Shown: one piece after another, positions 11,457-59,101 of the stretch
How positions within the stretch are numbered: the first letter of the stretch is position 1
How the letters are laid out: each line of letters starts with the position of its first letter
Source of the DNA: Kiritimatiellia bacterium
Lineage (GTDB): Bacteria; Verrucomicrobiota; Kiritimatiellia; RFP12; UBA1067
Assembly (NCBI GenBank): GCA_017542055.1
Contig: JAFXXW010000023.1
Span: 22,839 to 86,838 of the forward strand
Reading direction: 5' to 3'
DNA length: 64,000 nt
Position numbers and translations under genes: made by a program
Notes under the pieces: generated by a model
What the model saw: the letters and a program-made list of their open reading frames with translations, nothing else
What the model was told of the DNA's origin: nothing
Databases searched by the model: none

Positions 11457-14723
<3,267 letters not shown>

Positions 14724-14762
14724 TCAGCCTTTCACCAGCTTAAAACAATGTTAGTATCTAAT

Positions 14763-14791
14763 ATTATATCATATTCCGGCCAAAAAAGCAA
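14763..14791 (-). promoter_or_regulatory. Sigma70-type promoter upstream of gyrB
   Basis: Minus strand reads TTGCTT, a 17-bp spacer ending GGAATATGA, then TATAAT (extended TG-10). Belongs to the conserved promoter family in this window. Confidence 0.7.
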
Positions 14792-14808
14792 GCAAAATCT
14801 GCACCAAT

Positions 14809-14840
14809 CGGTAAATCGAACAATCGGTAAATCGGTAAAT
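14809..14840. repeat. 8-bp tandem repeat array (cggtaaat x4, one degenerate)
   Basis: cggtaaat cgaacaat cggtaaat cggtaaat, immediately upstream of the gyrB -35. The same array recurs at 51097 and 51825. Confidence 0.8.
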
Positions 14841-14842
14841 GC

Positions 14843-14932
14843 CGGGGGGGTGCCCACCCCCTCCCCCTATCGCCCAATAGGGCGTCACCCCCTCGCCATA
14901 CGGGGCGACACCCCGGGGGGTGCTTACCCCCC
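14843..14932. other. Cluster of GC-rich hairpins (homopolymeric G/C runs)
   Basis: Hairpins ggggggtg/caccccc, cgccc-aata-gggcg, tcgcc-atacgg-ggcga and gggggg-tgctta-cccccc. No T-tracts. Confidence 0.5.
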
Positions 14933-14993
14933 TCGCCCATACCCCCCCTTGAGCTTTTCCGTCTCGACCTGCACCCTGATTCCGATAGCCTTT

Positions 14994-15030
14994 GTATCTG
15001 CGCTTATTATATAAGCGCGCATCCAGATAC
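14994..15030. repeat. 37-bp imperfect nested palindrome
   Basis: GTATCTG CGCTTAT TAT ATAAGCG CGCATC CAGATAC: an 8-bp inner stem plus a 7-bp outer inverted repeat. Confidence 0.7.
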
Positions 15031-15043
15031 AATCGGTCCCGAC

Positions 15044-15063
15044 GAATCCGATATATCGGATTC
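15044..15063. repeat. Perfect 20-bp palindrome GAATCCGATATATCGGATTC
   Basis: The sequence equals its own reverse complement. The half-site ATCGGATT recurs at 15154. Confidence 0.85.
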
Positions 15064-15211
15064 CATCGAACATCTAATTCAAGGCAATAAAGATTCTATA
15101 ATATTTTTCGCAACTTGCCGTCAAGGCCAAAAGTGATTCCGACAAACTCCCTTATCGGATTTACCCTCCATCGGTTTCATCTAATTCAGCCAAAACGCAA
15201 TTTGCTTTAAT
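15064..15211. other. AT-rich region with iteron-like 22-bp direct repeats (tccatcg..catctaattca x2); candidate replication origin of the adjacent helicase module
   Basis: Sits immediately 3' of the helicase gene. GC is far below the window average. Direct repeats at 15062-15084 and 15167-15191. TATAAT-like and TTATCCATT motifs are present. Confidence 0.45.
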
Positions 15212-16873
15212 TTACTGCGCTTTATCCATTATTTTGCGATACTTTTTGTTGTTCCCGACACCAGTACTGATAAGTTCCACACCATATTCGGTCAAATTAT
15301 CTTTGAAGTAATTGCGGATGGTTCGCATCTCTTCTTCAGTCGGTTTTTTGCCGTCAATCTTGATATTGCTCTTGATGTAATGATCCAACTCGCCGGCGTT
15401 CGGCATCAAACGCTCGACAAATTGGGATAGTTCATTCCCGTATTCGGCGAGCTTGGAGTCGTCCAAGCCGTCTTTCTTGGCGGCCTTAGGCGCGTCGGTG
15501 TAAGGCACTTCGTGCCAATAGACCATATCGCCACCTTCATCGATTGCCGGATCGTGATAGCGGATGAACTTGACCGGCAGCGAATATTTCTCTTTGACCT
15601 CCTTGGGAATATCCCATCCTAGCTGCTTATGACGCTTGCTGCCCGCAAAATAGAAGTGACCGGGCTTGTTCTTTACCGGCCACAGGAGCATCGCCGCGCG
15701 CACCCAGTTGGGTAAGTCCGCGCCACCGATGGCCGTATACTGCGCATACTCGTTGATGGGGTTGGCATTGGCGTTGTTTTTGTTGTTCTCCTGCGGCTTC
15801 ACCGTGTGATGGATGAAGATGAGCCCGCACCCCAAGTGCTTGACCTCGGCATCCTCCGCCACTCCCGGCAATGGATTGAGCACCGGCTCAATGGCGCGAT
15901 CGAAGTAATACCGGAAGAGTTCGCGCGCCTTGTCGTTGTTGGAGATGTCCTCGCCCGCCACCCCCATCAGCGGATTGACGATAAACAGATCGAACGGTTT
16001 GCCGGAGTTGCGGAACTCCTCGCGCTGCACCGCGCGAATCCAGTTGGTGAAATCTTTGCCCTGCAACCCATTCTTGAAAAAGAGCCTTATGTTCGCTCCC
16101 ATTCGCGCGAAATCTTCGTCCGTCCAATGCTCCTCCTGCCGCAATCCCCGCTTGATGTCATCGCGGAAACGCACCATCTCGCTCTTGTTGTCTTCGGTGC
16201 CGTAGATGGCGATCTTGAGCGGATGCACCGGACGCAGCCCCAACATCGCCCGTCCATTGGCCCACGCCATCGCCAGTTGCATACACAAAACCGACTTGCC
16301 TTGTCCCGCCAGCGACACCAACATGGCCGCTCCCCCCTTCTGCAACCACTGGTCGCGGATGAGCGCGTCCGGATTGTGGTCGTCATCTACCGGAGCTTCC
16401 AGTTCGTCCAGCGAAACCCCGCAGAGATCCACCGCCGTTCCAGATCCCGGCAGGTGCTCCTTGACATATTCCAGCACCGATGCGATCTGCGCCGTCTTCA
16501 CCGACAAATCCGGCGCGGAGGTTTCGATTTCTCTGAGTTTCTCCTGCCGCCAGCGATCTAGCGTGGATTCCGCAAACTCCTTGAGCAACAACTCGAGTCC
16601 ATTCATGCTCACTTCGACGTAGTTGTAGCGCTCGCGGAAATCGTCGCCCAGATGCGTTTTGAGCCGGTCCACCAGAATCGGAATATCTTCCAGATAGGAG
16701 CCATCGACATTGCGCGCCGAGATAAGCACCTCGAAAGCTTTGCGTGTCTTTTCGAAAAGGAAATAGTCCGGCTTGATTTTCCACCGCTCCACCCGCTGCA
16801 ACATTTCCTCCATGCGATTGGAATTGCCCAACATCGCCAACAACACTTTCGTTTCGCATTCTAGCTGCGTCAT
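15212..16873 (-). CDS. MGE-type replicative helicase: DnaB-N-terminal-like domain + AAA_25 (RecA-like) ATPase + C-terminal domain of unknown function
   Basis: Real start MTQLECETKVLLAMLGNSN (ATGA overlap with the upstream gene). Walker A motif SLAGQGKSVLCMQLA. A DLFIVNPL...IFIHHTVK pattern. Confidence 0.65.
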   Translation of the reverse strand: MTQLECETKVLLAMLGNSNRMEEMLQRVERWKIKPDYFLFEKTRKAFEVLISARNVDGSYLEDIPILVDRLKTHLGDDFRERYNYVEVSMNGLELLLKEFAESTLDRWRQEKLREIETSAPDLSVKTAQIASVLEYVKEHLPGSGTAVDLCGVSLDELEAPVDDDHNPDALIRDQWLQKGGAAMLVSLAGQGKSVLCMQLAMAWANGRAMLGLRPVHPLKIAIYGTEDNKSEMVRFRDDIKRGLRQEEHWTDEDFARMGANIRLFFKNGLQGKDFTNWIRAVQREEFRNSGKPFDLFIVNPLMGVAGEDISNNDKARELFRYYFDRAIEPVLNPLPGVAEDAEVKHLGCGLIFIHHTVKPQENNKNNANANPINEYAQYTAIGGADLPNWVRAAMLLWPVKNKPGHFYFAGSKRHKQLGWDIPKEVKEKYSLPVKFIRYHDPAIDEGGDMVYWHEVPYTDAPKAAKKDGLDDSKLAEYGNELSQFVERLMPNAGELDHYIKSNIKIDGKKPTEEEMRTIRNYFKDNLTEYGVELISTGVGNNKKYRKIMDKAQ

Positions 16874-17451
16874 TGTCTTGCTCCTTCCGGCTTGTCTTCC
16901 TGCTCCACTCGATTCCATCTGCCGATCAGATTGTCGAAGCGCGCCCAAAGTTCCGAATACGCGCCAATCCACTTGGACGACATAAGTTCGCCAGTTTCGC
17001 CGGTGAATACATCCAGCCAAGCCTTACGCGTCGCATCATGCGCTTCGATGAGACGCAAGACCGGCCATTCCAGTTCCGGACGCTTTTCCGCCAAGAGACG
17101 GAAAAAGCCGTCCCACGACCGTTTCATCGCATCTAGCGCATCCTGTAGCGCATCCTGTTCTGGATACTTTAGTCTGCCGGCAAGCGCCGAAAAGCGGATG
17201 AGGTTGCTCACGTCGTAGGTGGCAAGCAGTTTGTGAATCTCTTGGACGGGAAAGTTGGCCGAATCGTCCTCACGCACTTGCCCCGCCAAATAATCCAGCA
17301 TTTTCGCGGACAACTCCGGCACCTGCACCAGCTCCGCCACCACCTTTCCGCGTTCCGAAATAAATCGCCTGGCGTTCGTGCGTGCCGCTTCCACCGCCAC
17401 TTTCGCGAGCGATCCCATTTCCGCGTTCTGTCTGGTTTCTTTTTCGAGCAT
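16870..17451 (-). CDS. Hypothetical protein (middle gene of the ATPase-helicase operon)
   Basis: 193 aa measured from MLEKET (an alternative start at 17472 is possible). No recognisable motif. Translationally coupled to the helicase gene. Confidence 0.5.
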   Translation of the reverse strand: MLEKETRQNAEMGSLAKVAVEAARTNARRFISERGKVVAELVQVPELSAKMLDYLAGQVREDDSANFPVQEIHKLLATYDVSNLIRFSALAGRLKYPEQDALQDALDAMKRSWDGFFRLLAEKRPELEWPVLRLIEAHDATRKAWLDVFTGETGELMSSKWIGAYSELWARFDNLIGRWNRVEQEDKPEGARQ

Positions 17452-17455
17452 ATCG

Positions 17456-18643
17456 TTATCGAAATAGATCAAGTGGATTCAGCGCCAGAAAATCTCCAAC
17501 CGGCATGCCTTCCGGCCCTACCAGCAAAACTCCATGCGGCTTGAATCGCTTGCGGAATTCCGCCATTCCCGAAGTAAACGTTTCTCGATTGGTCTTCACT
17601 TCGATCGCCACCAATTTCCCCTGTTTTTTCAGCACGAAATCAACTTCCAATTCGCCATCTCGCCAATACATCGCTTCGTAGTTGTCGACAAATGCCCTGG
17701 ACATCAAATGGGCCCCTACCGCCGATTCCACGCAGCGACCCCATTCTACCGGGTTGGACATGATATCTTTGGGCGGCACTCCAAGATAATGGCTCCTAAG
17801 CGAATTGTCGTGAACCTGGAATTTGGGCGAACTGGCCCGTTGGCGCGCCTGGTCGACCGTGCACTTGGGCAAGGCCGAAAGCATTCCGGCCGCCGATAGC
17901 AAAGCAAGGTACCCCGCGAGCGTGGTGGTATTGCCCGCATCGACGAGCGATCCCATCATCTTGGTGTAAGACAGTTCCTTGCCGGAATATTGCGCCCCCA
18001 ACTCGAATGCTTGCCTAAGTAGCGCCGGCTTGGCCACATTCGATCCCATCAGCACATCTTTCTGGATGGTGGCCTCGATTATCGAAGTGCCGATATATTC
18101 CGACCATCGTTCATAATCTTTCGCCAAGGTGGCAGCACCGGGGTAACCGCCGAAATACATATACTCCACTTCGTCAAATCCGAATGCCGCCTGCATTTCC
18201 GGGAAACTCCAATGCGCCACTCGCAACTCTTCGAATCTCCCCTGCATGGACTCGGACAGTCCTCGCTCCAGCATTACCCTTGAAGACCCCAACAATACCA
18301 CTTTAATGTTGACATCGGCGAAAGTATCCGCATCCCACTCTTTCTTGACCGCTTCGCTCCAATTGCGGATCTTCTGGATTTCGTCGATCGCCAGCACGAA
18401 TTCCCGATCGCCGCCCACTCGCATCCTGGTGCGAGCCAATTCCCAGGTATCGCCGATCCATCCCAGATTTTCGCTGGGAACTGCATCGGCCGAAACATAC
18501 AAGTACGGAACCTCAAGTTTGCTCAAAACCTGCTTGACAATGGTCGTCTTGCCCACTTGCCTGGGGCCCACCAATACTTGGATGAACCTGCGCGACTCTT
18601 TCAATCGCGCCAACAGTTTTCCGCATGCCTCACGTTCGTACAT
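17456..18643 (-). CDS. AAA+ ATPase (AAA_14-like) fused to a DUF4143 domain carrying a PD-(D/E)xK-like nuclease motif
   Basis: Walker A motif GPRQVGKTT. C-terminal WRDGELEVDFVLKKQGKLVAIEVK, i.e. a D..EVD...K / E-x-K arrangement. Confidence 0.75.
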   Translation of the reverse strand: MYEREACGKLLARLKESRRFIQVLVGPRQVGKTTIVKQVLSKLEVPYLYVSADAVPSENLGWIGDTWELARTRMRVGGDREFVLAIDEIQKIRNWSEAVKKEWDADTFADVNIKVVLLGSSRVMLERGLSESMQGRFEELRVAHWSFPEMQAAFGFDEVEYMYFGGYPGAATLAKDYERWSEYIGTSIIEATIQKDVLMGSNVAKPALLRQAFELGAQYSGKELSYTKMMGSLVDAGNTTTLAGYLALLSAAGMLSALPKCTVDQARQRASSPKFQVHDNSLRSHYLGVPPKDIMSNPVEWGRCVESAVGAHLMSRAFVDNYEAMYWRDGELEVDFVLKKQGKLVAIEVKTNRETFTSGMAEFRKRFKPHGVLLVGPEGMPVGDFLALNPLDLFR

Positions 18644-18653
18644 GTCGCTTGCC

Positions 18654-18707
18654 TTTTACTCAATACCTTGCAGGATTTTACTCAATGACTGGTAATTTTT
18701 TACTCAA
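18654..18707. repeat. Three direct repeats TTTTACTCAA(T/C) spaced 21-22 bp, in the leader between the -10 element and the start codon
   Basis: Repeat copies at 18654, 18676 and 18697. The spacing corresponds to two helical turns. They overlap the predicted TSS region. Confidence 0.7.
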
Positions 18708-18715
18708 CAGATAGT

Positions 18716-18745
18716 ATTATATCATATTTTTCGCCCAAATGTCAA
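18716..18745 (-). promoter_or_regulatory. Consensus sigma70 promoter (TTGACA-18-TATAAT) for the ATPase/helicase operon
   Basis: Minus strand reads TTGACATTTGGGCGAAAAATATGATATAAT. Confidence 0.7.
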
Positions 18746-18837
18746 TAGAGAAATACAAAATGTTTCTTCCCGCCAGCCCATGCGCCACCCGGCAGATAAC
18801 GATGCGCTGTCGTTTTGATCCCGATGAACACCGCGCC

Positions 18838-18880
18838 GCATCCCGATCAAATTATCACCGCATCCCGATCAAACTGCCCT
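18838..18880. repeat. Two 16-bp direct repeats CCGCATCCCGATCAAA separated by 6 bp, plus a related half-site
   Basis: Seen directly in the sequence. Located about 95-140 bp upstream of the -35 of the 18716 promoter. Confidence 0.7.
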
Positions 18881-18913
18881 TGAGGGCGACAGAAGCGATA
18901 AACTTCGCTTCGC

Positions 18914-19912
18914 TTACTTGGCACCCAGTATTTCCGCTTTTTTCCTAGCATATTCTTCGTCGGTCAAAAGTCCTTTCTCGTGTAAGCTGTCCAATCGTTT
19001 GATTCGCGCTTCAACTTCTGGACCAGGCGTTTTCTTGGTTGCCACTTCACCCTTGCGCTTAATCTTTGGCTTGGTCGCTTTGGCTGCAGGTGCTGGCTTG
19101 GCGACTGGCACTGGCTTGTCGGACAGTTCAACCTTTACCGCAGGCGGCGGAGCTTGCTCTATCTTAGGCTCCGGTTTGGCGACTGGCGGATCGATTCGTG
19201 CCTTGTCGTTTCCACCGAACTTGAAGTTTACGAGCGGAAATTTCCATCCGTTGGCATTCCGGTTCCAAAGACCGATCTGCACCGACCAGTCCGACCCGGA
19301 AGGATCGTGCTCTTTGATTTCATTGTAGAGACCTGCAATCTGCAACCCGCTACCGTACTTTGCCTGATTGCTGAGGCCCGCCACTTGAATTCCGCCGAAA
19401 TCCTCGCTACCGTTAAACAAACTTCCGACTTGAATACCGTTGAGTTCCTTCGCCCGGTTCCACATGAGACCCACCTGAATGCCGTTCATGTCCAGCACCT
19501 CCGAACCCCACCAGCCAATGCCTAGCCCATAGACAGACCGCTGCGCAAAGCACGGATACTCCCAGCCTTCGACAGAATTGGGTTTTCGGGGACCGTAGGC
19601 GAACGGAACAGGATGGAAATCCTGAATCATAATGCCGCATATGTTCCAGTGATAGGCTCCAACTTCGCCAAACGAATAGGAAAAAGGCGACCAAGTGTCG
19701 GACGGAGCTTTTCGCCAAGCCTCCATACGCCGCTCCATACGCTGCTCCTGACGTTTGAGATTTAGCTCCTGAAACTCTTGTCGCTCCTCGGCAGTAAGGA
19801 AAAGCGTCCCTTTTCTCCGCACCACATCCTCGATTGGCTCCTTTTCCCCTGATTTAGGCGTATGGCACGCCACTATCGGCAGACACAGCAAAAGACCAAG
19901 CAATTTTTTCAT
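18914..19912 (-). CDS. Lipoprotein with GIQVG-type internal repeats and a C-terminal SHOCT domain
   Basis: Lipobox IVAC. Repeats NGIQVGLMW / NGIQVGSLF / GGIQVAGLS / GLQIAGLY. A Pro/Lys-rich linker. C-terminal LHEKGLLTDEEYARKKAEIL. Confidence 0.7.
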   Translation of the reverse strand: MKKLLGLLLCLPIVACHTPKSGEKEPIEDVVRRKGTLFLTAEERQEFQELNLKRQEQRMERRMEAWRKAPSDTWSPFSYSFGEVGAYHWNICGIMIQDFHPVPFAYGPRKPNSVEGWEYPCFAQRSVYGLGIGWWGSEVLDMNGIQVGLMWNRAKELNGIQVGSLFNGSEDFGGIQVAGLSNQAKYGSGLQIAGLYNEIKEHDPSGSDWSVQIGLWNRNANGWKFPLVNFKFGGNDKARIDPPVAKPEPKIEQAPPPAVKVELSDKPVPVAKPAPAAKATKPKIKRKGEVATKKTPGPEVEARIKRLDSLHEKGLLTDEEYARKKAEILGAK

Positions 19913-19913
19913 T

Positions 19914-20453
19914 TCAAAGCTCCTTGATGATTGCGGATTTCTTCTGTTCGTATTCTTCCTTGTTCAAAAGACCTTCCTCGTATGCGAGCTTGAGTTCTTG
20001 CAAATTTTGTCTCATCGGGTCGTTCGCCTCCATCTCCTCTGCGAGATATCCATACTCCTGCACCAGTTTCAGGTTGTTGGCGCGATTGACATCCATTATC
20101 GCTCCAGCCATGCCGAATGGCATTGTCACCGAATATATGTACGGGAACCATGACACCGACAATAAAAGCACCCCGCTGCCATTAAGCTCCGCTCTGTCGT
20201 AATCGTGGTTTTCGATGGCCGCATCGCCCATTTTGTTGGCGATAAACATTTGCCCCGCACCCGGCAAAATACTCCAGAAAATCGCTGGCGTCATTTTGAC
20301 GGCCGGTTTGTATCCTGGCGGCGGATTGCCTGCCCAACTTACCCCCTGTTCGTGCAGTCGATCCAATTGCGCCCGCTCTTTTTCGTACACGCGCACGGAA
20401 TTACACCCGGCCATGCCGGCCAGCATCGCCACCATCAATATGCACTTTTTCAT
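19914..20453 (-). CDS. Lipoprotein with a C-terminal SHOCT domain
   Basis: Lipobox LAGMAGC. C-terminal LKLAYEEGLLNKEEYEQKKSAII. Confidence 0.7.
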   Translation of the reverse strand: MKKCILMVAMLAGMAGCNSVRVYEKERAQLDRLHEQGVSWAGNPPPGYKPAVKMTPAIFWSILPGAGQMFIANKMGDAAIENHDYDRAELNGSGVLLLSVSWFPYIYSVTMPFGMAGAIMDVNRANNLKLVQEYGYLAEEMEANDPMRQNLQELKLAYEEGLLNKEEYEQKKSAIIKEL

Positions 20454-20763
20454 AGCATCCTTTCGTTTTCTGTTTTACCGCGTGCGATCCACAAAAAGAA
20501 AACCTCCCTTTGTATCTCTAGAGAGGCTGTGAGAATTGCCCAGATGGAAATACAAAGAGAGGAAGTGCGTTTGCACTTTCCCTGCCAAGTTTCGTCCATC
20601 TTGAAACTTCTCACATTTCTCTAGACGATCGCTTTGCAGCGTTGCAAATTGTCTGTCACTCCGCGCGTTGGCGCGGCGACGTTTGGCGGGGCGTTGCCCG
20701 CCTATACCGTTTTACCTTCTGCCGTTTCCTTTCATTCGGTTCAACGATGGTTTGAAATCTTGC

Positions 20764-21108
20764 TCATGGTTTCGGCAGTTCTGACTGTATGGCGGACAAC
20801 TGCTTTCTCATCTTCGGCAATACGCCGCGAACCGTTTCCCACAATGCCGCATAATCAACCCGCATGTATTCGTGGGCTATCATATTGCGAAGACCCACCA
20901 TCTTGTGCCATTGCACTTCCGGATGGTCGGCCTTCATCGCTCCAGACACCATGTGCGCCGCCTCGCCGATAATCATTATATAACGCTCGGCTGCGGCAAG
21001 CTTATCCTTGTTCTCAAGAAAATCTTCTTTCCGGATGCCGTCGGTCGATTCAAGCGCATCATCGATAGCGCCAAGAATATGCAGGATTCGATCGTAGTCG
21101 CGCATCAT
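20764..21108 (-). CDS. hepT: HepT-like (DUF86) toxin of a HepT/MNT toxin-antitoxin pair
   Basis: RNxxxHxY motif LRNMIAHEY. ATGA overlap with the upstream MNT gene. Confidence 0.8.
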   Translation of the reverse strand: MMRDYDRILHILGAIDDALESTDGIRKEDFLENKDKLAAAERYIMIIGEAAHMVSGAMKADHPEVQWHKMVGLRNMIAHEYMRVDYAALWETVRGVLPKMRKQLSAIQSELPKP

Positions 21109-21407
21109 ACGCTCACCATGTCCCTTCTTACTTCTTTGGCAAACCAAGGACTGCGCTCGTTGTCGATGCACCCATACGAGACAACATCCACTTCACGCCC
21201 CAGAACTCTCTCCATATCGTCTTTAAGGTCGATTGCGTCGAACAGGTTATACTTTGGCGCATACTCCACGAGAAAATCCACATCGCTGTCAGGGCGCTCT
21301 TCCTTGCGGGCGCAGGAGCCGAAGACCCAAAGCTTTTCGGCTTTGTGTTTCCGCGCGATAGCGTAGATTTCGTCCCGCTTCGCCCTGATCTCATCGAGCA
21401 TGCACAT
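21105..21407 (-). CDS. mntA: Nucleotidyltransferase (MNT) antitoxin
   Basis: GSCARKEERPDSDVDFLV nucleotidyltransferase motif. 100 aa. Confidence 0.8.
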   Translation of the reverse strand: MCMLDEIRAKRDEIYAIARKHKAEKLWVFGSCARKEERPDSDVDFLVEYAPKYNLFDAIDLKDDMERVLGREVDVVSYGCIDNERSPWFAKEVRRDMVSV

Positions 21408-21430
21408 GGATTTCCCCGTTAGATGCTAAT

Positions 21431-21459
21431 ATTATACCATATTCCCACCCGAAAAGCAA
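21431..21459 (-). promoter_or_regulatory. Promoter P1 of the MNT-HepT operon
   Basis: Minus strand reads TTGCTT, a 17-bp spacer, then TGGTATAAT. Confidence 0.65.
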
Positions 21460-21614
21460 GCAGAATCTGCGAAAACTCCCCAACTCCAAAACTCCCCCAA
21501 GCGAAAGCAACTCCCCACCCGTCAAGCGGAAAGCGGGGAAAGTGTGAGACGGGAGGTATGGTCAGTAGGCGGCGAGCTTGAGTTCGTCCGTCATGCCCTT
21601 GAAGAAATCCGAGT

Positions 21615-21643
21615 ATTATACCATTTTCCGCCTCAAAAAGCAA
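21615..21643 (-). promoter_or_regulatory. Second promoter-family copy (P2), 184 bp upstream of P1
   Basis: Minus strand reads TTGCTT, a 17-bp spacer, then TGGTATAAT. Starts right after the GT8 stop. Confidence 0.6.
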
Positions 21644-21653
21644 GGGGAATTAT

Positions 21654-22616
21654 TCAGCATCCGTACTTAAGGCGGATATTGAGAAGGTAAAGGAAATAGC
21701 AAGCCAGGTCAAATGCGCCTTGCGGGAGAAACTTATGGAGATAATACTGGAGGAGGTAGCACGGCTGCATGGGCCGCGTCTGTTCGGCCGCAAGCGCCAA
21801 ATCCGCTTCCCGCGCCGCCTCCCGGTAGCGCTCGCGCAAGGGATGGCGCGAGCTCGTATACCAGGGCCGGCCGAGCGTATGGCCGAGAAAATGGAAGATG
21901 CGCGGGTCTTTTTGCGCCTCCAAGTATTCCTTTTCGCCAAAGCGCATCACGCCGCCATTAACGCGCCTTACCCCCGCGTACGAAAAAAGGAAATAGTGCG
22001 AAATAAAGTTCCACTTCGGGTGCAAAAGCGCCGTCTCTTCCGGGAACAGGCGCACGAACACATCCTGGTCGCCCAAAGGATTGGGTCCGTGGGGGTGGGC
22101 GAGCTCGTCCAAGAAACGCTCAGTGCAGCGATGCTCGCGCCACGCTTCAAGGTCGATCACCATCACCCCGGCATTGTAATACGGCAGTTCTTTTGGATGG
22201 TTGATCGCTCGCTTGTATGTCCAAGGCACGCAGTCGGTCGCAAGCGCCAGAGGCTTCCCGCCCAAATCCTGCTCCCACAGCTCCTTGAGGCTTCCGCCCA
22301 CCAAGGTGTCGCAATCAAGATAGATTACACGCTTTTGCGCCAAGAGCTCGGGAATGAAAATGCGTGCGTAGGTGGCGTAAGACGTGTAGCCGTTATAGCC
22401 ACGCGCCTTCAGGTTTTCGAGCGCCCCGCCCACCTCGACATAGCGGAAAGACCCGCCCTTCGCCTCCACCCGGCTTTGCACGAGCTCCCGCGCCGCCGCC
22501 TCAAGCCCATACCCCAAAAGCACGATCTCCGCACCCGGATTGTGCGTCAAGGCCGAAACCGCGCTAATGGCCGTAAGCGCAACGTAATTTGCATCGCTCG
22601 CGTAGACCAAAGTCAT
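21654..22616 (-). CDS. Glycosyltransferase family 8 (LPS/general stress protein A-like)
   Basis: YLDCDTLV and NAGVMVIDL motifs. 320 aa. Confidence 0.8.
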   Translation of the reverse strand: MTLVYASDANYVALTAISAVSALTHNPGAEIVLLGYGLEAAARELVQSRVEAKGGSFRYVEVGGALENLKARGYNGYTSYATYARIFIPELLAQKRVIYLDCDTLVGGSLKELWEQDLGGKPLALATDCVPWTYKRAINHPKELPYYNAGVMVIDLEAWREHRCTERFLDELAHPHGPNPLGDQDVFVRLFPEETALLHPKWNFISHYFLFSYAGVRRVNGGVMRFGEKEYLEAQKDPRIFHFLGHTLGRPWYTSSRHPLRERYREAAREADLALAAEQTRPMQPCYLLQYYLHKFLPQGAFDLACYFLYLLNIRLKYGC

Positions 22617-22718
22617 CTTCAGTAGGCGACGGGTTGGAATTCGCGGATGGCGCGCTTGCCGAGGAAGCGGGCGAAGAGACTATTGCCCTTTTCGCCGGAT
22701 TTTTTCGTTTTCACTCGC

Positions 22719-23351
22719 TTAACGCGCTTGAGCCGCCTTTTCCTGGCGCAGATAGAGGACAAAACGAATCGCCCAAACGAGCACCATCATGTAGCCGAAG
22801 AGCTCGACCGATTCTTCGGTGAAGCGCTTGAACGAGTGCCAGGACCCGTCGGCCGCGCCGGTGCCTTCCGCCAAGGTCTTCCAGAACTTCTTATATCCAA
22901 TGACGCGCGAAAAGCCGAGAATCGTAAAGACGCCCAGCATGAGCAGCGCGGAATTGGGCGCTTTGACCATTGCTTCGAGTCCATCAAGAATGGTCGTGCG
23001 ATACTTGACGGCCAGAACGAGCGCGGCTACCGTGATTACGCCCACCGGCACCACCCAAAAGCCGTGCACCACCTTGTCGAAAAGCGCATCCTGCTCGCGG
23101 ATGGCCATATCGAGGAAGAAGACGCCCGCGAGGAGCAGTCCCGCCAGCAAGTCGCGCCGCTTGAAAGCCGCCCACACGAGCGCGCAACCGGAAACGGCGA
23201 GCGCCAAAAACTGGCACCACTCCACCACGCCGTTTTCCTCGCACGGCTGATGGAGCCCCATCACGTCGGCGATCATGGCGCCGAGACAAATCACCACCAT
23301 GCATAGAAGCGGCAGCGCTTCCCCGACCATCTTTGCGATACGTTTGATCAT
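22719..23351 (-). CDS. Integral membrane protein of unknown function
   Basis: About six hydrophobic segments. ATGA overlap with rfbA. Confidence 0.55.
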
Positions 23352-24211
23352 TTGCAGAGCCCTCTCAAGTATTGTCCGTAAGTCGAAGAACCGTAAGTGG
23401 CGGCGATGTTCCTGAGCTGCTCGCTGGAAATCCAGCCGCGACTCCAGGCGATCTCCTCGATGCAGCTCATCTGGAGACCCTGACGCTCGATGATGGCGCG
23501 CACGAAGTTGGTGGCGTCCGCGAGCGACTGGTGCGTGCCCGTGTCGAGCCAGGCGAAACCGCGACCCATGTTGCGCACGTGCAGGCGCTTCTCCTTGAGA
23601 TAGATCTTGTTGAGGTCGGTTATCTCGTACTCGCCGCGCGCCGAAGGCTGCAGTTCGGCCGCGTACTTGACCACGTCGTTGGGATAGAAGTAAAGCCCCA
23701 CCACCGCGTAGTTGCTCTTGGGATGCGCTGGCTTCTCCTCGAGGCTCAGCACCTTGCCGTCCGCGTCGAATTCCACCACGCCGTAGCGCTCCGGATCCAC
23801 CACCCGGTAGCCGAAAATGGTGGCTTCCTTGCCGTTGCTCGTGTCCAAAAGGAGCTGCGACAGATTGGCGCCGTAGAAAATGTTGTCGCCCAGCACCAGG
23901 CAGACGTCGTCGTCGCCGATGAATTCCCGTCCCAGCACGAACGCCTGGGCGAGCCCGTTGGGCACCTCCTGCACCTTGTACGAAAAGCGCATGCCGAGCG
24001 AGGAGCCGTCGCCCAACAGCCGTTCGTAGAGCGGCAGGTCGAGCGGCGTGGAGATGATCAGCACCTCCCGGATGCCCGCCAGCATCAGCGTGGAGAGCGG
24101 ATAGAAGATCATCGGCTTGTCGTAGACGGGCAGGAGCTGCTTGGAGACCACCCGGGTGAGCGGATGGAGACGGGTGCCGGAGCCGCCGGCCAGAATTATG
24201 CCTTTGCGCAT
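23348..24211 (-). CDS. rfbA: Glucose-1-phosphate thymidylyltransferase
   Basis: [19 protein letters not shown]...[10 protein letters not shown]. Confidence 0.9.
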
Positions 24212-24215
24212 AAGT

Positions 24216-25367
24216 TTACCTCCCGGTGTATTGGCCCATTACGATAACGGACTTGGTGGGTTCGTGATAGATGAAATAGAGGAAAGGACGGTTCAAGACG
24301 AGCGAATGGATTTCCTTGCCCTTGTCCAGATGGACCTGCTGCTCCTGGGGCTTGTCCTTGAGCGGCTCCGCGTCCACTCCCTGCTCGTCCAGCCGGAAGC
24401 GGACCACCTGGCGGAAATCCCGGCCCGGAATGTCGCCGTTGAGTTTGAGATAGCCCTGCACCGGGAACTTGAAGTGCCCCATCGCCCCCGTCAAATCGTT
24501 GACGCTCGTCTGGTCCATCGTCGGGATCGCCACCACTGCCGGACCCTTGTAGATGCCGGTTTCGGTGATGGAATCCATCATTACCAAAAGATCGCCGAAA
24601 TTCTTTTCGGTGAGCTGCTCGCGCACCGCTTTAAGGCTTGTGCCGCTGTGGGGCAGCACCGCATAGAACCAGGCGCCGTCCGCCATCGGGAGGCGGCCCA
24701 TCGTGTAGGTTTTGCCGGTGTAGAGCTCCACCTCGCGAATATCGCACATCATGTCCGTCAAAACACGCGTCTTGAAGTCGGCCTCGTTGGGTAAGAACGC
24801 CTTCTTGCGCCGGTTCCCCACCGGGAACGGTTCCGCCCAGCTGATGTGCACGCTCGCGAGCTCGTAGAAAGAATTGCGCTCCGACTTGGCCGTGTCCATC
24901 GGGATTTCGAAGTCTTCCATGTCGCCTTCCATCATCGCCCGGAACCAGCACTCCGCGCCCTCTTTGGGGAAGGCAAGGGTCACCTCCCCTTGGAAATCGC
25001 GTTGCAGGTCCTGCGCGTAGGCGGCCGAAACCTTGCGGAAATCGGGCACCAGAAAAGCCCGCGCGGAAACGTAGGAAAGGCGATTGGTGGACGACACCTC
25101 GCGCAAATGGCGGAGGATGGGCACGTACGTGCCCTCGAGTCCCGTCAACACCCCCAAGGTCTCCGCGAAATGCGACTTGGCGATGGGCTCGAACGCATTG
25201 GCCATCATCACCGAATCGAGTTCGAAACCGAGGGGCGAAAACACCTTGCTCTCCAAAGTCTCGGCCGGCACTCCGGCATTGAACGCCTCCATGTTGAAGC
25301 CGGGCATCCGTCCCGCCCAAGCCGCACCCGAAATTCCTATCACCAATATCGCCAAAATCCGCTTCAT
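24216..25367 (-). CDS. Secreted serpin-family protein
   Basis: Signal peptide. The C-terminal [11 protein letters not shown] fits the serpin signature pattern. 383 aa. Confidence 0.7.
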
Positions 25368-31620: not shown

Positions 31621-31628
31621 TGTTATAT

Positions 31629-31657
31629 ATTATATCATATTCCGCCCGAAAAATCAA
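31629..31657 (-). promoter_or_regulatory. Promoter of the lpxI-lpxB-secA-ispD operon. Its -10 element lies 8 nt from the lpxI ATG, so the first gene is predicted to be leaderless.
   Basis: Minus strand reads TTGATT, a 17-bp spacer, TATAAT, then ATATAACA and ATG. Confidence 0.65.
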
Positions 31658-31704
31658 GCAGAAAACCACCCGTCCGGACATTTTTCGGACCGACGACGCC
31701 AGGT

Positions 31705-51000: not shown

Positions 51001-51036
51001 CGTTCTTCTCTCCAAGTTTTGCTTTTTAAGCCGCGT

Positions 51037-51065
51037 ATTATATCATATTTTCCCCAAAATTGCAA
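51037..51065 (-). promoter_or_regulatory. Promoter-family copy upstream of the BASS gene (part of direct-repeat block B)
   Basis: Minus strand reads TTGCAA, a 17-bp spacer, then TGATATAAT. Confidence 0.6.
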
Positions 51066-51096
51066 GCGGAAAGTGCACATTCACACTAATCACAAT

Positions 51097-51128
51097 CGGT
51101 AAATCGATAAATCGGTAAATCGGTAAAT
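51097..51128. repeat. 8-bp tandem repeat array (cggtaaat x4)
   Basis: cggtaaat cgataaat cggtaaat cggtaaat. Confidence 0.8.
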
Positions 51129-51173: not shown

Positions 51174-51524
51174 TTAGCGCTTGATCCGGCAAGAGTAGTC
51201 GCGCAAGATACAGACCGTGTCGACCAATGAAGAACCGGCATTGGCCAGAAACCATTTGAGCCGCTCCATGATGGCTCGCCGATTGGGCTGTCTGAGCGCC
51301 ACCACCACTATTCCGGCATGATGCGGATGCAAGAGCGGAACCGTATGGTAAAAGTCGCGATCCGAAGTAAGAATCACCGCTCCCAACCTTTGGGCCGTCG
51401 CGAAAACATCGTCGTCCTCAGCGCCGAAATCGCACGCATCTTCAAACGCAATTGCGATATGCCCGCACTCCTCTACGACCTCGGCCGCAGACTTGGGGAA
51501 GTTCTCGTCCAGCAGAAACTTCAT
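51174..51524 (-). CDS. DUF5615 PIN-like toxin-type protein
   Basis: MKFLLDENFP start. 116 aa. Paired with a DUF433 gene. Confidence 0.7.
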   Translation of the reverse strand: MKFLLDENFPKSAAEVVEECGHIAIAFEDACDFGAEDDDVFATAQRLGAVILTSDRDFYHTVPLLHPHHAGIVVVALRQPNRRAIMERLKWFLANAGSSLVDTVCILRDYSCRIKR

Positions 51525-51757
51525 CAGACCACCGACAAATTACCGTACGGCATGTCTTCAAAGCTGGCAAGCGAACCTGCAAACGCGAAGACTGCGGAAA
51601 TGTCTTCCGAAGTAATGCTGGGATAATCCATCATTATATCGTTTACCGAATCGCCTCCGGCAAGCGCACCAAGCAATTGTGACACCAAAACTCTAGTGCC
51701 GCGAATGACCGGTTTGCCGTGGCAGACGGACGGATTTATCTCAATTCTTTCATTCAT
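51524..51757 (-). CDS. DUF433 domain protein (putative antitoxin)
   Basis: INPSVCHGKPVIRGTRV motif. Real start MNERIEI lies 7 nt from the -10 element. Confidence 0.7.
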   Translation of the reverse strand: MNERIEINPSVCHGKPVIRGTRVLVSQLLGALAGGDSVNDIMMDYPSITSEDISAVFAFAGSLASFEDMPYGNLSVV

Positions 51758-51764
51758 GCCTAAT

Positions 51765-51793
51765 ATTATATCATATTTTCCGCCAAATTGCAA
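51765..51793 (-). promoter_or_regulatory. Promoter of the DUF433-DUF5615 cassette (block A); predicted leaderless
   Basis: Minus strand reads TTGCAA, a 17-bp spacer, TATAAT, then ATTAGGC and ATG. Confidence 0.65.
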
Positions 51794-51824
51794 GCGGAAA
51801 GTGCACATTCACACTAATCACAAT

Positions 51825-51856
51825 CGGTAAATCGATAAATCGGTAAATCGGTAAAT
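51825..51856. repeat. 8-bp tandem repeat array (cggtaaat x4)
   Basis: Identical to the array at 51097. Confidence 0.8.
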
Positions 51857-51923: not shown

Positions 51924-54900
51924 TTAGTTGTTAGGCGTGGCACTGACCTTGACGCGATAGAACACCGCAGTAGGCGTGCCATTCACCGCCGGCTTCACGG
52001 GGTCGACAGATGCGCTGGTCGCCAACTTGCGAGTGCCCTCGGTCTTACCTTCAGTGAAGCCCAGGTTGGTGGCCGCCTCGATGGAGTAGTAGAGGCCAGG
52101 CTTGGCAGTCGTGATCGTGACTTCAGTGGCATCAGCATCAAGCGCATCCGCCAGGCCTTCAGTCAGTTCATCGGATTCCGAAGCCGGGAACACAACCTCT
52201 TCATTGAGGTCATTGACCGGATCGACCTTCACTTCATACTTACCGTATGTCGCAGACTGCGTCACCGTGTAGTTGAAGTAGGTCTTGTAAGTTTCGGCCG
52301 TTACGCCAGTAGCGGCAGCGACCACAGCTTCCGGAATCTTCACCGAAGCTGCCGCGATAGCTGCTTCCTCGATCTGCGCCTGAGTCTTGCCCGCAGGGTC
52401 GACCGCCACTTCCTGCGTGGAAGTCGAATCGGTCGGATCGATGCCGGCAGACGCCAGCGTGTAGTAGCCAACCTCTTCGGCTTCCACCCACTTGTAGCCA
52501 TTAGGAATTTCCGAAGTCCAGGTAGCGGAAACCGCAACCGTAATACTGACTTTGCTCATGTCATTGTTGTCATCAACAACAGCAACCGCCTTTGTGGCGG
52601 AGAGCGAAGCTCCGGTCTCGATCCGAACATCGATCGTACGATTGGCATCATACTGGGCAACCGCAATCGCCGCGCCCTTGATGGTGGCACCATTGCCAGT
52701 AGGATTGTAGGAATAGGTGGCTACCGTGCCCGTAATGGAGGCGTTCATGGCAACGGACAAACTACCGTCACGGATTTCGATGCCGGACTCGCCTTTGACG
52801 ATGGCAGTACTGCCAACCGTTACATTAGCATGGCCCTGGACCGCGATACCGCTGTGAACATTTTCTCCACCAGTTGCCTCGGACGCATCAACCGTGCCGT
52901 TCACGACAATGTTGATCTCGTTCTCCTGATTCCTCAGGTTGCCGAGCACGAAGAGCATGCCCTTGACGGTGCCATTGACGGTCACATCAATCTTATTCTT
53001 CGTTGCATTGTTGGAGCCGAACACATTGAGACCATAGCAAGTGCCCTCAAGCGTGACATTCTGACCGATTGTGAGCGTACGCTTGCTGGTCAAATCGCCA
53101 GTGCCACGAATCTCAATCGGAGCCCAAGCAACATCAGTGCATGTAATCTTGCCCGTGCCAGTAACAGTCAAGCTACCACCAGCCAATGCAATTCCGTGCG
53201 TGGTAGTGATGTTGCAGTTGTTGAGATCAAGCGTAATGGCCTTATTCTCGGTCGTAGTAGCATAACGTCCCGAGCCCGCGAAGGCCGGCTCTGCACCCGC
53301 ATTCACGAAGAGACGCTCAGTCAGAGCCACATTGGACACCAACGTCACTGTCTGCCCGTCGGTTGCCGCAGCAAGCGCCTCAGCGAGGGTGGGATACAGC
53401 GTGGTGCCGATTTTGGCCTGAGCCATCGCGAAGGTAACATTGACGACCGAATCACCAGTCACAGCGGCAGTGTAGACATTGCCCACCGGAGCCGGTAGAT
53501 CAACCGGATCGGCTGCGCCCACCTTGATGGTGGCCGAGCTGACGAGGCGGTCACCATAGGGGGTCACCGTGAACGAGAGATCCGCGCCATCCTTGACGTA
53601 GAAGTAGGCTCCTGACGGACCGCCCATTTCAGCCGCGACAGCTTCCGGAACCTGACGGACCAGATCACCAATCGTTACGACGACATTACCGTCACCCGAC
53701 AGATAATCCATCTTAACCGTGCGGCGCTCGCCATAGCCATACTTGACGCGACGGTTGGGCGTCACACCGCTTATGGTCTCCACAATCCAGGTAGTGTCAC
53801 CCAAGAAGAAGGACATCTCATCGCCAATGACATAGCCGCCATCGACCGTGATGTCGATTCCCTGTCCGAACGAGACGGTCTCGCCCACATCGATCGTCAC
53901 CGCCTTATCAAGCACCAGCGCATCAGGCACCGCCTGAAGGAGCTTGACCGTCTGGCCAGCCTCGGCCGCCTCGAGGGCCTCGGAGAAGGTCTCGTACTTC
54001 ACGCCGCCGACCTCTGCGACCCAAGTACCGGCCTGAACGACCCAGTAGCCTTCCTGGAGCTTGGCAATACGGCCAGTGGCGAGGAAGTTCGTGCAGAGGC
54101 CGGAGTCGTCACCCTCTTCAGGGTTGACCTGCCAGAAGGAGCCGCCAGTAATGGTGATGAGCTGCTGAGCTACGTTTGCCTGGTTGACCGCCATGCCCGT
54201 CCAGCCAGTCTTGTACTGGTATTCAACAGCGGTGTTGTTCCTGTAGGTACCGCTATTGATGGTAACAGCAGCACCAGTGAACGGATAGACGCAAGCACCA
54301 GCCTGGGAATTGACGGTGACTGTGAGGTCTTCGAGCGTGACATTCGAGCCGGTTCGCGCCGTGATGGCGTAAACACCAGTAGCAACAATTGCGGTATCGT
54401 CCTGCGTGCAGTCGATGGTGCCGTTCTTGATGGTGACCGTGCCGCTCTTGACGTCGAACACGCTGCCGTTGCCGGAGGTGCCGGTACGGGTGATCTTGTG
54501 TCCGTTCAGGTTAATCGTGACCGGCGACATACCGGGACTCGGTTCCACGCGCTCCGTCAGCGTGATATCTTTGAGGACAACCACTTCCGCGTTATACGCA
54601 GTGGCCACAGCTACTGCCCCGGCCAGCGAATCGTAGAGGGTATAATCCACCCGGGCAACCGCTTCCTTGACCTCCATACCTTCCGGTCGAGTAACCGTGT
54701 CGGTATCGGCAGTAAGGGAAATCACCTTCTGAGAAGCGCCATTGATCACATAATCACCATCTGCCGTATAGGTGATGGTTACATTCTCTCCTATCCTCGC
54801 TTTATAGGTGTTGGTATCGGCATCAACCACTTCAGCATCCCCACCCTGCACCGAGATGGTCGTATTGTCCGGAACCTCGACAGTGAAGGTCTTAAACGCC

Positions 54901-58966: not shown

Positions 58967-58995
58967 ATTATACCACCTTTTGGCCGCCCTGTCAA
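58967..58995 (-). promoter_or_regulatory. Perfect-consensus promoter TTGACA-17-TATAAT for the giant gene
   Basis: Minus strand reads TTGACAGGGCGGCCAAAAGGTGGTATAAT. Confidence 0.7.
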
Positions 58996-59101
58996 GTGTA
59001 AATTGCGGAAACTTCCAAAACTCCCGATATCGAAAGCAACTCTCCACCACGCCCTCTTCCTGCCCTCTACGGGCCGCTTTCCGGGCCTCTACGGAGCGGC
59101 T

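Follow-up and report, generated by a model that had tools for sequence, protein, structure and literature searches.

A block of about 4 kb (~14843–18880) in the genome of an uncultured gut Kiritimatiellia bacterium is horizontally acquired DNA, and we consider it probable that its core constitutes the replication module of an integrative element, composed of a partner protein, a DnaB-type helicase and their cognate origin. The block lies in contig JAFXXW010000023.1 (GenBank assembly GCA_017542055.1), within a stretch of 64,000 nucleotides (nt; positions 22,839 to 86,838 of the forward strand) that was analysed as a whole and is termed here the window; all coordinates refer to it. Three packed genes on the minus strand encode, in the order of transcription, an AAA_14 ATPase with a DUF4143 domain (17456–18643), the partner protein (16870–17451) and the helicase (15212–16873), and they are followed immediately by low-GC DNA that contains repeats and palindromes. 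An earlier note on this DNA, made from its letters, had placed the three open reading frames (ORFs) at the same positions and had treated the trio as one mobile-element-like module. The ORFs and their packing are confirmed; the conserved unit, however, consists of the partner, the helicase and the downstream DNA, with the AAA_14 gene as cargo.

Genomic context and composition of the block

The block is foreign to the site in which it is found. Its neighbour at lower coordinates is gyrB (12516–14714), and the spacing between gyrB and the serpin gene in the window is 9.5 kb. In seven related species (L010, L011, L013, L031, L048, L077 and L086) the series SecA–IspD–metallophosphatase–serpin is followed directly by gyrB, and at none of the 80 related loci, each from a different species, does any gene of the island between gyrB and the serpin gene occur within 10 kb of gyrB. 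The comparison of synteny that the earlier note had proposed shows the island, with its region of 15.0–18.9 kb, to be missing beside gyrB in these relatives. The GyrB protein of the window is at most 89% identical to those of species representatives, the nearest of which are metagenome-assembled genomes from rumen and gut.

GC content is depressed both in the genes and in the DNA downstream of them, the latter of which the earlier note had called low in GC. It drops from about 0.61 to 0.50–0.58 across 15–22.7 kb; it is 0.535–0.558 in the three genes and 0.425 in 14951–15211, whereas the window as a whole has 0.60 and gyrB has 0.613. At third codon positions (GC3) the three genes have 0.63–0.70 and gyrB 0.88.

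The block is also present in a second context. The exact helicase was found on 14 metagenome contigs, all with the surroundings seen in the window, and a 99%-identical block was found on contigs from three samples (L125, L128 and L129), which match the window only from 18804 downwards and have another left neighbour gene; therefore the block, with its promoter, AAA_14 gene, partner gene, helicase gene and downstream DNA, exists in at least two contexts. The left edge of the shared block (18804–18880, minus strand) contains TTTGATCGGGATGCGG direct repeats, beyond which the 99%-identical copies diverge; these copies have one TTTGATCGGGATGCGG repeat only (18851–18822), and the gene upstream of it ends in QFFKVKFGE. 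The same 24-nt gene end (QFFKVKFGE and stop) stands shortly upstream of the elements in L107 (163–186) and L125 (154–177), also in L128 and L129, and is absent from the window. The helicases of the L107 and L125 elements are only about 36% identical to each other, and this gene end is possibly a recurrent insertion target. Together, the gap in synteny among relatives, the GC and GC3 values, the second context and the relatives accompanied by integrases or a capsid gene (see below) bear out the view of the block as foreign DNA of the mobile-element type.

The helicase

The helicase (553 amino acids, aa; 15212–16873, minus strand) is composed of a DnaB-like N-domain (residues ~1–145), an AAA_25 core (~150–460, with the Walker A motif GQGKS) and a C-terminal domain (~470–550) that extends about 85 residues beyond the core. 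Pfam assigns AAA_25 (E=5.2e-12) and no other family at E≤0.01. At the same threshold there is no match to orthodox DnaB (Pfam DnaB_C), and NCBIfam gives no match either; the protein is therefore a DnaB-like relative and not a DnaB orthologue. It had been predicted that Pfam searches of the three proteins would find AAA_14, DUF4143, AAA_25 and the DnaB N-domain, and all were found except the last, which for the window protein alone is not significant (E=0.052). A profile of the family N-domain, however, matches Thermus DnaB (2q6t, residues 11–147, E=5.7e-6) and the DnaB-like phage helicase 3bgw (E=0.0019), and Pfam DnaB matches 7 of 24 helicase relatives.

From an alignment with 40 relatives AlphaFold gave a model with a mean predicted local distance difference test score (pLDDT) of 88.8. 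The best matches of this model in the PDB are subunits of full-length DnaB hexamers (E=7e-14, about 500 aligned columns), followed in Foldseek by RSF1010 RepA and T4 gp41; its matches in BFVD include DnaB-like helicases of phages as well as fusions of primase and helicase. All 15 invariant residues of the family are kept in the window helicase. G190, G192, K193, S194, D295 and R392, which are invariant or nearly so in the 40 relatives, are among the residues present, so that Walker A, Walker B and an arginine finger are in place. The helicase is thus homologous to DnaB, and the earlier description of it as a DnaB N-domain-like protein with an AAA_25 core is upheld by the Pfam match, the N-domain profile and the structural model. 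It would be a DnaB-type (superfamily 4, SF4) hexameric replicative helicase, with hexamer formation and 5′–3′ unwinding as predicted properties. The C-terminal domain is predicted as three helices and a β-hairpin (residues 472–547, pLDDT >90), a topology that appears compatible with a winged helix.

Among 1.84 billion cluster representatives searched, 1511 clusters are related to the helicase at E≤0.001, and the best are only 36–37% identical. When the helicase or its alignment was used as query in word-indexed protein searches, nothing but the query itself came back, and neither the scans of species-representative genomes nor the first metagenome scan gave a relative.

Origin-like DNA downstream of the helicase gene

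The region directly behind the helicase gene (14951–15211, GC 0.425) is origin-like, with 10-mer repeats and two longer repeat units. The GAATCCGATA-type 10-mers stand at 14978 (+), 15044 (+), 15054 (−) and 15153 (−), with a further copy at 15135 (+, 2 mismatches); with at most one mismatch, GAATCCGATA has 7 matches in the 64-kb window, and 4 of them fall within 185 nt, two in each orientation. Two inverted copies form the perfect 20-bp palindrome GAATCCGATATATCGGATTC (15044–15063), which had been seen before and is present exactly as described. Each of the two repeat units of ~20–22 nt (15062–15081 and 15167–15188) adjoins a GAATCCGATA-type 10-mer. They had been taken for 22-bp direct repeats; two copies of about this length do exist, but they are imperfect and agree exactly only in the 11-nt core CATCTAATTCA (at 15071 and 15178).

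Between the 10-mers lies a GC-clamped palindrome with an AT core, GCGCTTATTATATAAGCGC (15000–15018), which is perfect as 8+3+8. What had been described as a nested 37-bp palindrome holds for this core, but the outer arms are only 73% complementary. A strict palindrome of this kind occurs once in the 64-kb window and not at all in 1.28 Mb of related genomic DNA, and we regard it as a candidate unwinding or loading site. The 10-mers flank it in opposite orientations immediately downstream of the helicase gene, which is the iteron layout of SaPIs, the pathogenicity islands found in Staphylococcus aureus.

In the direction of the helicase gene, the origin-like region is followed by G/C-rich repeats and hairpins (14843–14950, GC 0.74) that include a poly-G tract of variable length; all these features, and the host-type array named below, fall in the first 500 nt past the helicase stop. 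The block probably has its right end here, and contigs from eight assemblies end within these repeats, at 14884–14946. The poly-G run at ~14935–14945 has 7, 8 or 10 G in different assemblies (contig ends L002, L003, L005 and L007), a difference that may come from errors in sequencing or mark a hypervariable tract. The adjoining DNA is of the host type and contains the gyrB promoter with an upstream array of ATTTACCG 8-mers (14750–14842, minus strand). The tandem 8-mers at 14806–14840 were considered as iterons of the element and rejected, because an identical array is found at 51094–51128 and at 51822–51856, each just upstream of a promoter.

Relatives of the helicase and the layout of their loci

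The loci of seven helicases with 33–37% identity were taken as close relatives. A strict palindrome follows the helicase gene in L110, L111, L122 and L123 and an imperfect one in L109, while L108 ends inside one. The flanking repeats are specific for each element: TACCCGCAAAACCGT three times in L109, GGTGGAAAAA four times in L123, GTTTGTCGG in direct and inverted orientation in the more distant L249, and elsewhere AAATTTCCC and TTTTCC-type repeats. In L249 the GTTTGTCGG repeats are followed by GGTATATATACTATGTATATACC and then by inverted GACAAGC repeats.

A metagenome scan with the family motif added 105 further helicase loci from many environments. A relaxed clamp palindrome lies within 250 nt of the helicase stop at 31 of the 62 distant loci that remained after removal of redundancy (~12 times the background, which predicts 0.04 in 250 nt), and repeats together with a palindrome were seen by eye at 16 of the 20 loci whose helicase has the C-terminal domain. 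G/C-rich tandem repeats come after the palindrome in L207 and L111, as in the window, and the palindromes are without the T-run of an intrinsic terminator. The layout of a rep gene followed by iterons, proposed earlier from the window alone, is thus conserved: helicase, repeats and palindrome come in this order in relatives both close and distant, much more often than in background DNA.

Some distant relatives of the helicase are found in mobile elements. Helicase relatives are encoded on 19 contigs of IMG/VR; in L088 the helicase gene stands between a gene for an excisionase-like protein and one for a major head protein. Among 150 ORFs that neighbour the metagenome helicase loci, Phage_integrase (7) and DNA_pol_A (5) are the most frequent families, and ERF, DnaG, RadC and AbiTii are also present. 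L249 and L187 have, in this order, a host gene, a tyrosine integrase, a gene of no assigned family, AlpA-like ORF, small Cys-rich ORF, helicase and origin-like DNA. In L123 and L124, which come from independent assemblies, the partner-helicase pair lies head to head with an EcoRI endonuclease and its methylase, and both contigs stop 74 nt past the helicase stop, within the GGTGGAAAAA repeats.

The partner protein and the AAA_14/DUF4143 gene

The partner gene (16870–17451, minus strand) overlaps the start of the helicase gene by ATGA, with a GGAG motif 9 nt 5′ of the helicase start, and encodes an all-helical protein of 193 aa. It belongs to no family of Pfam, PHROGs, NCBIfam or PADLOC, and an AlphaFold model from an alignment of 6 sequences gives a helical bundle (pLDDT 83). 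Homologues of 172–211 aa are encoded in all seven close relatives, each with a 4-nt overlap with the helicase start; they are remote (BLASTP E=3e-8 to the nearest), and the set aligns as a family. In most relatives the partner gene has its own TGnTATAAT promoter. The pair of partner and helicase is thus conserved, and the partner is a candidate loader or accessory factor.

In the window, transcription of the trio can be assigned to a promoter at 18716–18745 (minus strand; TTGACA, 18 nt, TG-n-TATAAT), which agrees with the consensus hexamers in 12 of 12 positions and has the TG in addition; read from 18745 to 18716, it has no second promoter-like site beside it on the gene strand in the whole interval 18913–15212. 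The leader that follows contains three copies of the 11-mer (A/G)TTGAGTAAAA at an exact spacing of 22 nt (18654–18708, minus strand, 5′ of the AAA_14 gene). These are the only 3 matches in the window, where 0.30 would be expected, and the triplet is possibly an operator or a leader element.

The first gene (17456–18643, minus strand), whose stop is 4 nt from the start of the partner gene, encodes a protein of 395 aa with an AAA_14 ATPase domain (Pfam E=2.6e-23) and a C-terminal DUF4143 (E=2e-25). It matches the PADLOC model PDLC04791 of the candidate defence locus PDC-S01 with E=2.9e-169 over residues 1–393 of 395, and so fits the single-protein definition of PDC-S01, AAA_14 with DUF4143, from end to end. 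DUF4143 is listed among the PD-(D/E)XK nuclease families (PMC3424549), and among the candidate defence loci of rumen genomes PDC-S01 ranks first in frequency (PMC13356809). It is defined as a single gene, as a candidate without demonstrated mechanism, whereas the window copy is co-transcribed with the helicase pair; other PDC-S01 loci are without the helicase pair, and other helicase pairs are without PDC-S01. Since the AAA_14 gene is present at none of the loci of the seven close helicase relatives, it was rejected as an obligatory partner of the helicase, and the conserved unit is the partner-helicase pair. Judged by this comparison of loci, the AAA_14/DUF4143 gene is cargo of the present copy.

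A model of the module and its alternatives

The following mechanism may be proposed for the module. One strong promoter transcribes the trio, in which the candidate defence gene PDC-S01 has been placed ahead of the partner-helicase pair. The winged-helix-like C-terminal domain of the helicase would read the element-specific 10-mers, which stand in both orientations around the GC-clamped palindrome with its AT core. This binding would open or extrude the AT core, at which the helicase ring would then assemble, in effect loading itself; the translationally coupled partner protein may assist as a loader, and the DnaB-like N-domain would recruit the host primase. A module of this kind may still be active in the present host.

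Several observations weigh against such a reading. Across the interval from gyrB to the serpin gene, neither a Pfam search nor an ORF survey found a gene for an integrase, excisionase, relaxase, primase or capsid protein. The partner has no recognisable fold relative, as Foldseek gave only generic helical bundles (E≥0.1). For the C-terminal domain a PDB profile search and Pfam gave nothing convincing, and we therefore infer the winged helix only from the predicted order of secondary-structure elements. Searches by tblastn of 50,697 records of phages and 72,556 of plasmids gave no relative of the helicase, with the exception of a weak match of a distant relative to a Vibrio phage, so that nothing experimentally studied anchors the family. 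The AT core of only 11 nt is far shorter than classical unwinding elements, and the contig ends at 14884–14946 could be assembly failures in G-rich hairpins and not the boundary of an element. Finally, no circular contig or excision junction was seen, and 11 short contigs that were checked have no terminal overlaps.

The absence of an integrase had been noticed before and stands: neither an integrase nor a packaging gene is present across 14715–24220. The window copy is therefore probably a partial or composite element in a larger accessory island, which also holds a toxin-antitoxin (TA) pair, SHOCT lipoproteins and glycosyltransferase genes. Equally, it had been stated that no duplication of an attachment site (att) is present, and element-specific direct repeats at both ends were indeed not found. 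A 53-nt direct repeat (14750–14802 and 21418–21470, 83% identical) was considered as attL/attR and rejected, because it is one of the 7 or more copies of a promoter family that the window contains.

The alternative that survives best, although we think it unlikely, is that the block is an immobile relic of an integrated plasmid or satellite without integrase, which is kept for PDC-S01 or for the gyrB promoter at its right end and whose origin no longer fires. The lack of integrase, excisionase and any circular form would agree with this, as would the arrangement at gyrB, which in relatives follows the serpin gene almost without spacer and in the window has its own promoter beside the block. 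Decay is nevertheless not what the genes look like: the three ORFs are intact, the helicase keeps every invariant residue, and hardly any mismatch disturbs the repeats and palindromes, some of which are perfect. Moreover, synonymous changes outnumber non-synonymous ones between the window and the 99%-identical variant (7:2 in the helicase and 5:2 in the AAA_14 gene), and the presence of that variant in another left context argues for recent movement or exchange.

It is improbable that the trio constitutes one anti-phage defence operon, in which the PDC-S01 ATPase-nuclease would act with the helicase as effector or sensor and the partner as adaptor, and the repeats would be regulatory sites or a terminator. 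Such an operon could be suspected from the single promoter of three tightly packed genes, the full-length match of the first gene to a candidate defence locus so prominent in the rumen, the adjacent HepT/MNT pair, and the restriction-modification system of the EcoRI type that adjoins the pair in one relative. No PADLOC model, however, matches the helicase or the partner, the AAA_14 gene is missing at all seven close relatives of the pair, and other, more distant relatives of the helicase sit in elements that bear integrases or a capsid gene. Nor would defence explain a grammar of palindrome and repeats that is conserved in position and element-specific in repeat sequence, and the lack of a T-run at the palindromes speaks against intrinsic terminators.

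Least probable of all is that the GC-clamped AT palindrome serves as a site of site-specific recombination (Xer/dif-like multimer resolution, or an attachment site for a host recombinase): this would explain why the island has no integrase, and the QFFKVKFGE gene end upstream of the L107 and L125 elements suggests a recurrent target, but the palindromes are symmetric, differ in arm sequence between elements, are embedded in element-specific repeats of both orientations as in iteron origins, and in integrase-bearing relatives stand right after the helicase gene, well inside the element and not at its end. A further point in favour of such a site is that palindrome arms, for example those of L110 (TGCGCATAT, ATATA, ATATGCGCA), may resemble the XerC arm GTGCGCATAA of E. 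coli dif.

If the block is, as we favour, the replication module of an integrative element, a wider proposal can be put forward tentatively, as a possibility that is less likely than its opposite. The helicase would be the first recognisable example of a class of SF4 initiator-helicases that have their own origin-reading C-terminal domain and load at a GC-clamped AT palindrome, flanked by element-specific repeats, behind their gene; with the partner, they would form a minimal portable replicon of 2.5–4 kb that moves between chromosomal sites, integrative elements, phages and defence islands in uncultured bacteria, in some copies without a recombinase. One large AAA_25 subfamily is in any case tied here to a testable DNA partner, a predictable origin grammar right behind the gene. 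If the reading of the block as a replication module is right, the logic of one protein as initiator and helicase, seen in SaPI Rep and similar proteins of superfamily 3 (SF3), would extend to the DnaB/RecA-fold superfamily. It would also help to locate origins, and to find the limits of mobile elements, in bacteria of gut and environment that have not been cultured; it would supply a compact replicon that might be made into genetic tools for Kiritimatiellia and related bacteria, and it would document the travel of the very common candidate defence gene PDC-S01 with a replication module.

Neighbouring genes and other features of the window

The neighbours of the trio are those described earlier, that is gyrB, SHOCT lipoproteins and a TA pair: the island encodes two SHOCT proteins, whose N-termini resemble a lipobox, together with a HepT/MNT pair (20764–21108 and 21105–21407) and a GT8 glycosyltransferase. 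The MNT protein matches the PADLOC candidate PDC-S09 (E=2.1e-28), and the island therefore holds two candidate defence loci besides the helicase module. None of the 9 island proteins matches a Rep family (Rep_3-type initiator of iteron plasmids), and an Rfam scan of 14600–21700 found no RNA family.

The promoter family mentioned above (TTGCTTG or TTGACA, spacer, TG-n-TATAAT) is found at 14750–14802, 21418–21470, 21602–21654, 31628–31663, 51036–51070, 58984–59048 and 18716–18745. Its copies at gyrB and MNT share 83% identity across 53 nt, with the leader included.

The surroundings of gyrB differ among relatives. In the closest relative (L008) the genes found at 31.8–41.6 kb of the window sit upstream of gyrB, and in the next-closest (L009) a tRNA-Leu and the genes of 46.9–50 kb do so; with these two arrangements beside that of the seven species with serpin directly before gyrB, the site is a rearrangement hotspot in this group. 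An empty site, in which GT8 would adjoin gyrB, was not found among contigs with the exact gyrB or GT8 proteins, and the sole alternative junction is at 21457 in L118. This contig (SRR17418359) is the same as the window through GT8 and departs at 21457, just before the MNT promoter, into other promoter-like sequence; six further GT8 contigs stop at 21421–21527. Strain-level variation at the junction near 21457 is suggested.

A second TA pair, DUF433 with a PIN-like protein (DUF5615), is encoded at 51177–51524 and 51527–51808 (minus strand) and is flanked by a duplicated segment of ~90 nt (51036–51128 and 51760–51856), which consists of four ATTTACCGATT-type 8-mers and a promoter; a gene for a bile-acid:sodium symporter is driven by copy two of the segment. 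The arrangement has the look of an inserted cassette, with duplication of the promoter region on insertion. An ORF of 2335 aa (51924–58931, minus strand) without Pfam match occupies the second low-GC stretch of the window (GC 0.50–0.58).

Comparison with known systems

A DnaB-family helicase with a small loader gene directly upstream is known from phage SPP1 (G39P–G40P). The window module shares with this type an N-terminal helical domain, a RecA core and a small coupled helical protein encoded upstream. It differs in that the core scores as AAA_25 and not as DnaB_C, in the extra C-terminal domain of ~85 residues and in the origin-like DNA downstream of the gene; nor was any similarity of the partner to known loaders detected.

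RSF1010 RepA is the only PDB sequence match of the helicase family profile, and the structural agreement in Foldseek reaches a template modelling (TM) score of 0.66–0.68 on the target (1g8y/1nlf). Both proteins have the same type of ATPase core, but RepA is the core alone (279 aa), whereas the window helicase adds N- and C-terminal domains. In RSF1010, origin recognition is performed by the separate RepC and priming by RepB. AAA_25 proteins are common in genomes. The RepA-like gp46 of Lactococcus phage F13 was demonstrated to act as a 5′–3′ helicase in a work of 2022, which places AAA_25 beside RepA and notes that no function had been described for proteins with AAA_25 (PMC8965321).

The nearest parallel in logic is found in Rep-ori of SaPIs and other phage-inducible chromosomal islands (PICIs). 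SaPI Rep, a self-loading helicase, serves at the same time as initiator through its C-terminal winged helix; this binds iterons that flank an AT-rich region on either side and follow immediately downstream of rep (PMC9371898). Common to both systems are a helicase gene followed by origin-like DNA, with oppositely oriented, element-specific repeats around an AT-rich centre, and an extra C-terminal domain, which is a winged helix in SaPI Rep and is predicted as three helices and a β-hairpin in the window helicase; the relatives of the window helicase are, like SaPI Rep, carried by integrative elements. Unlike SaPIs, the window copy has no integrase, its AT centre is a short GC-clamped palindrome, and the protein encoded upstream is a helical partner without fold match in place of a primase. 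SaPI Rep belongs to the AAA+ superfamily SF3 and the window helicase to RecA-fold SF4, with a DnaB-type N-domain, and the two systems are therefore analogues and not relatives. On this shared layout, SaPI Rep-ori appears to be the closest functional analogue of the module described here.

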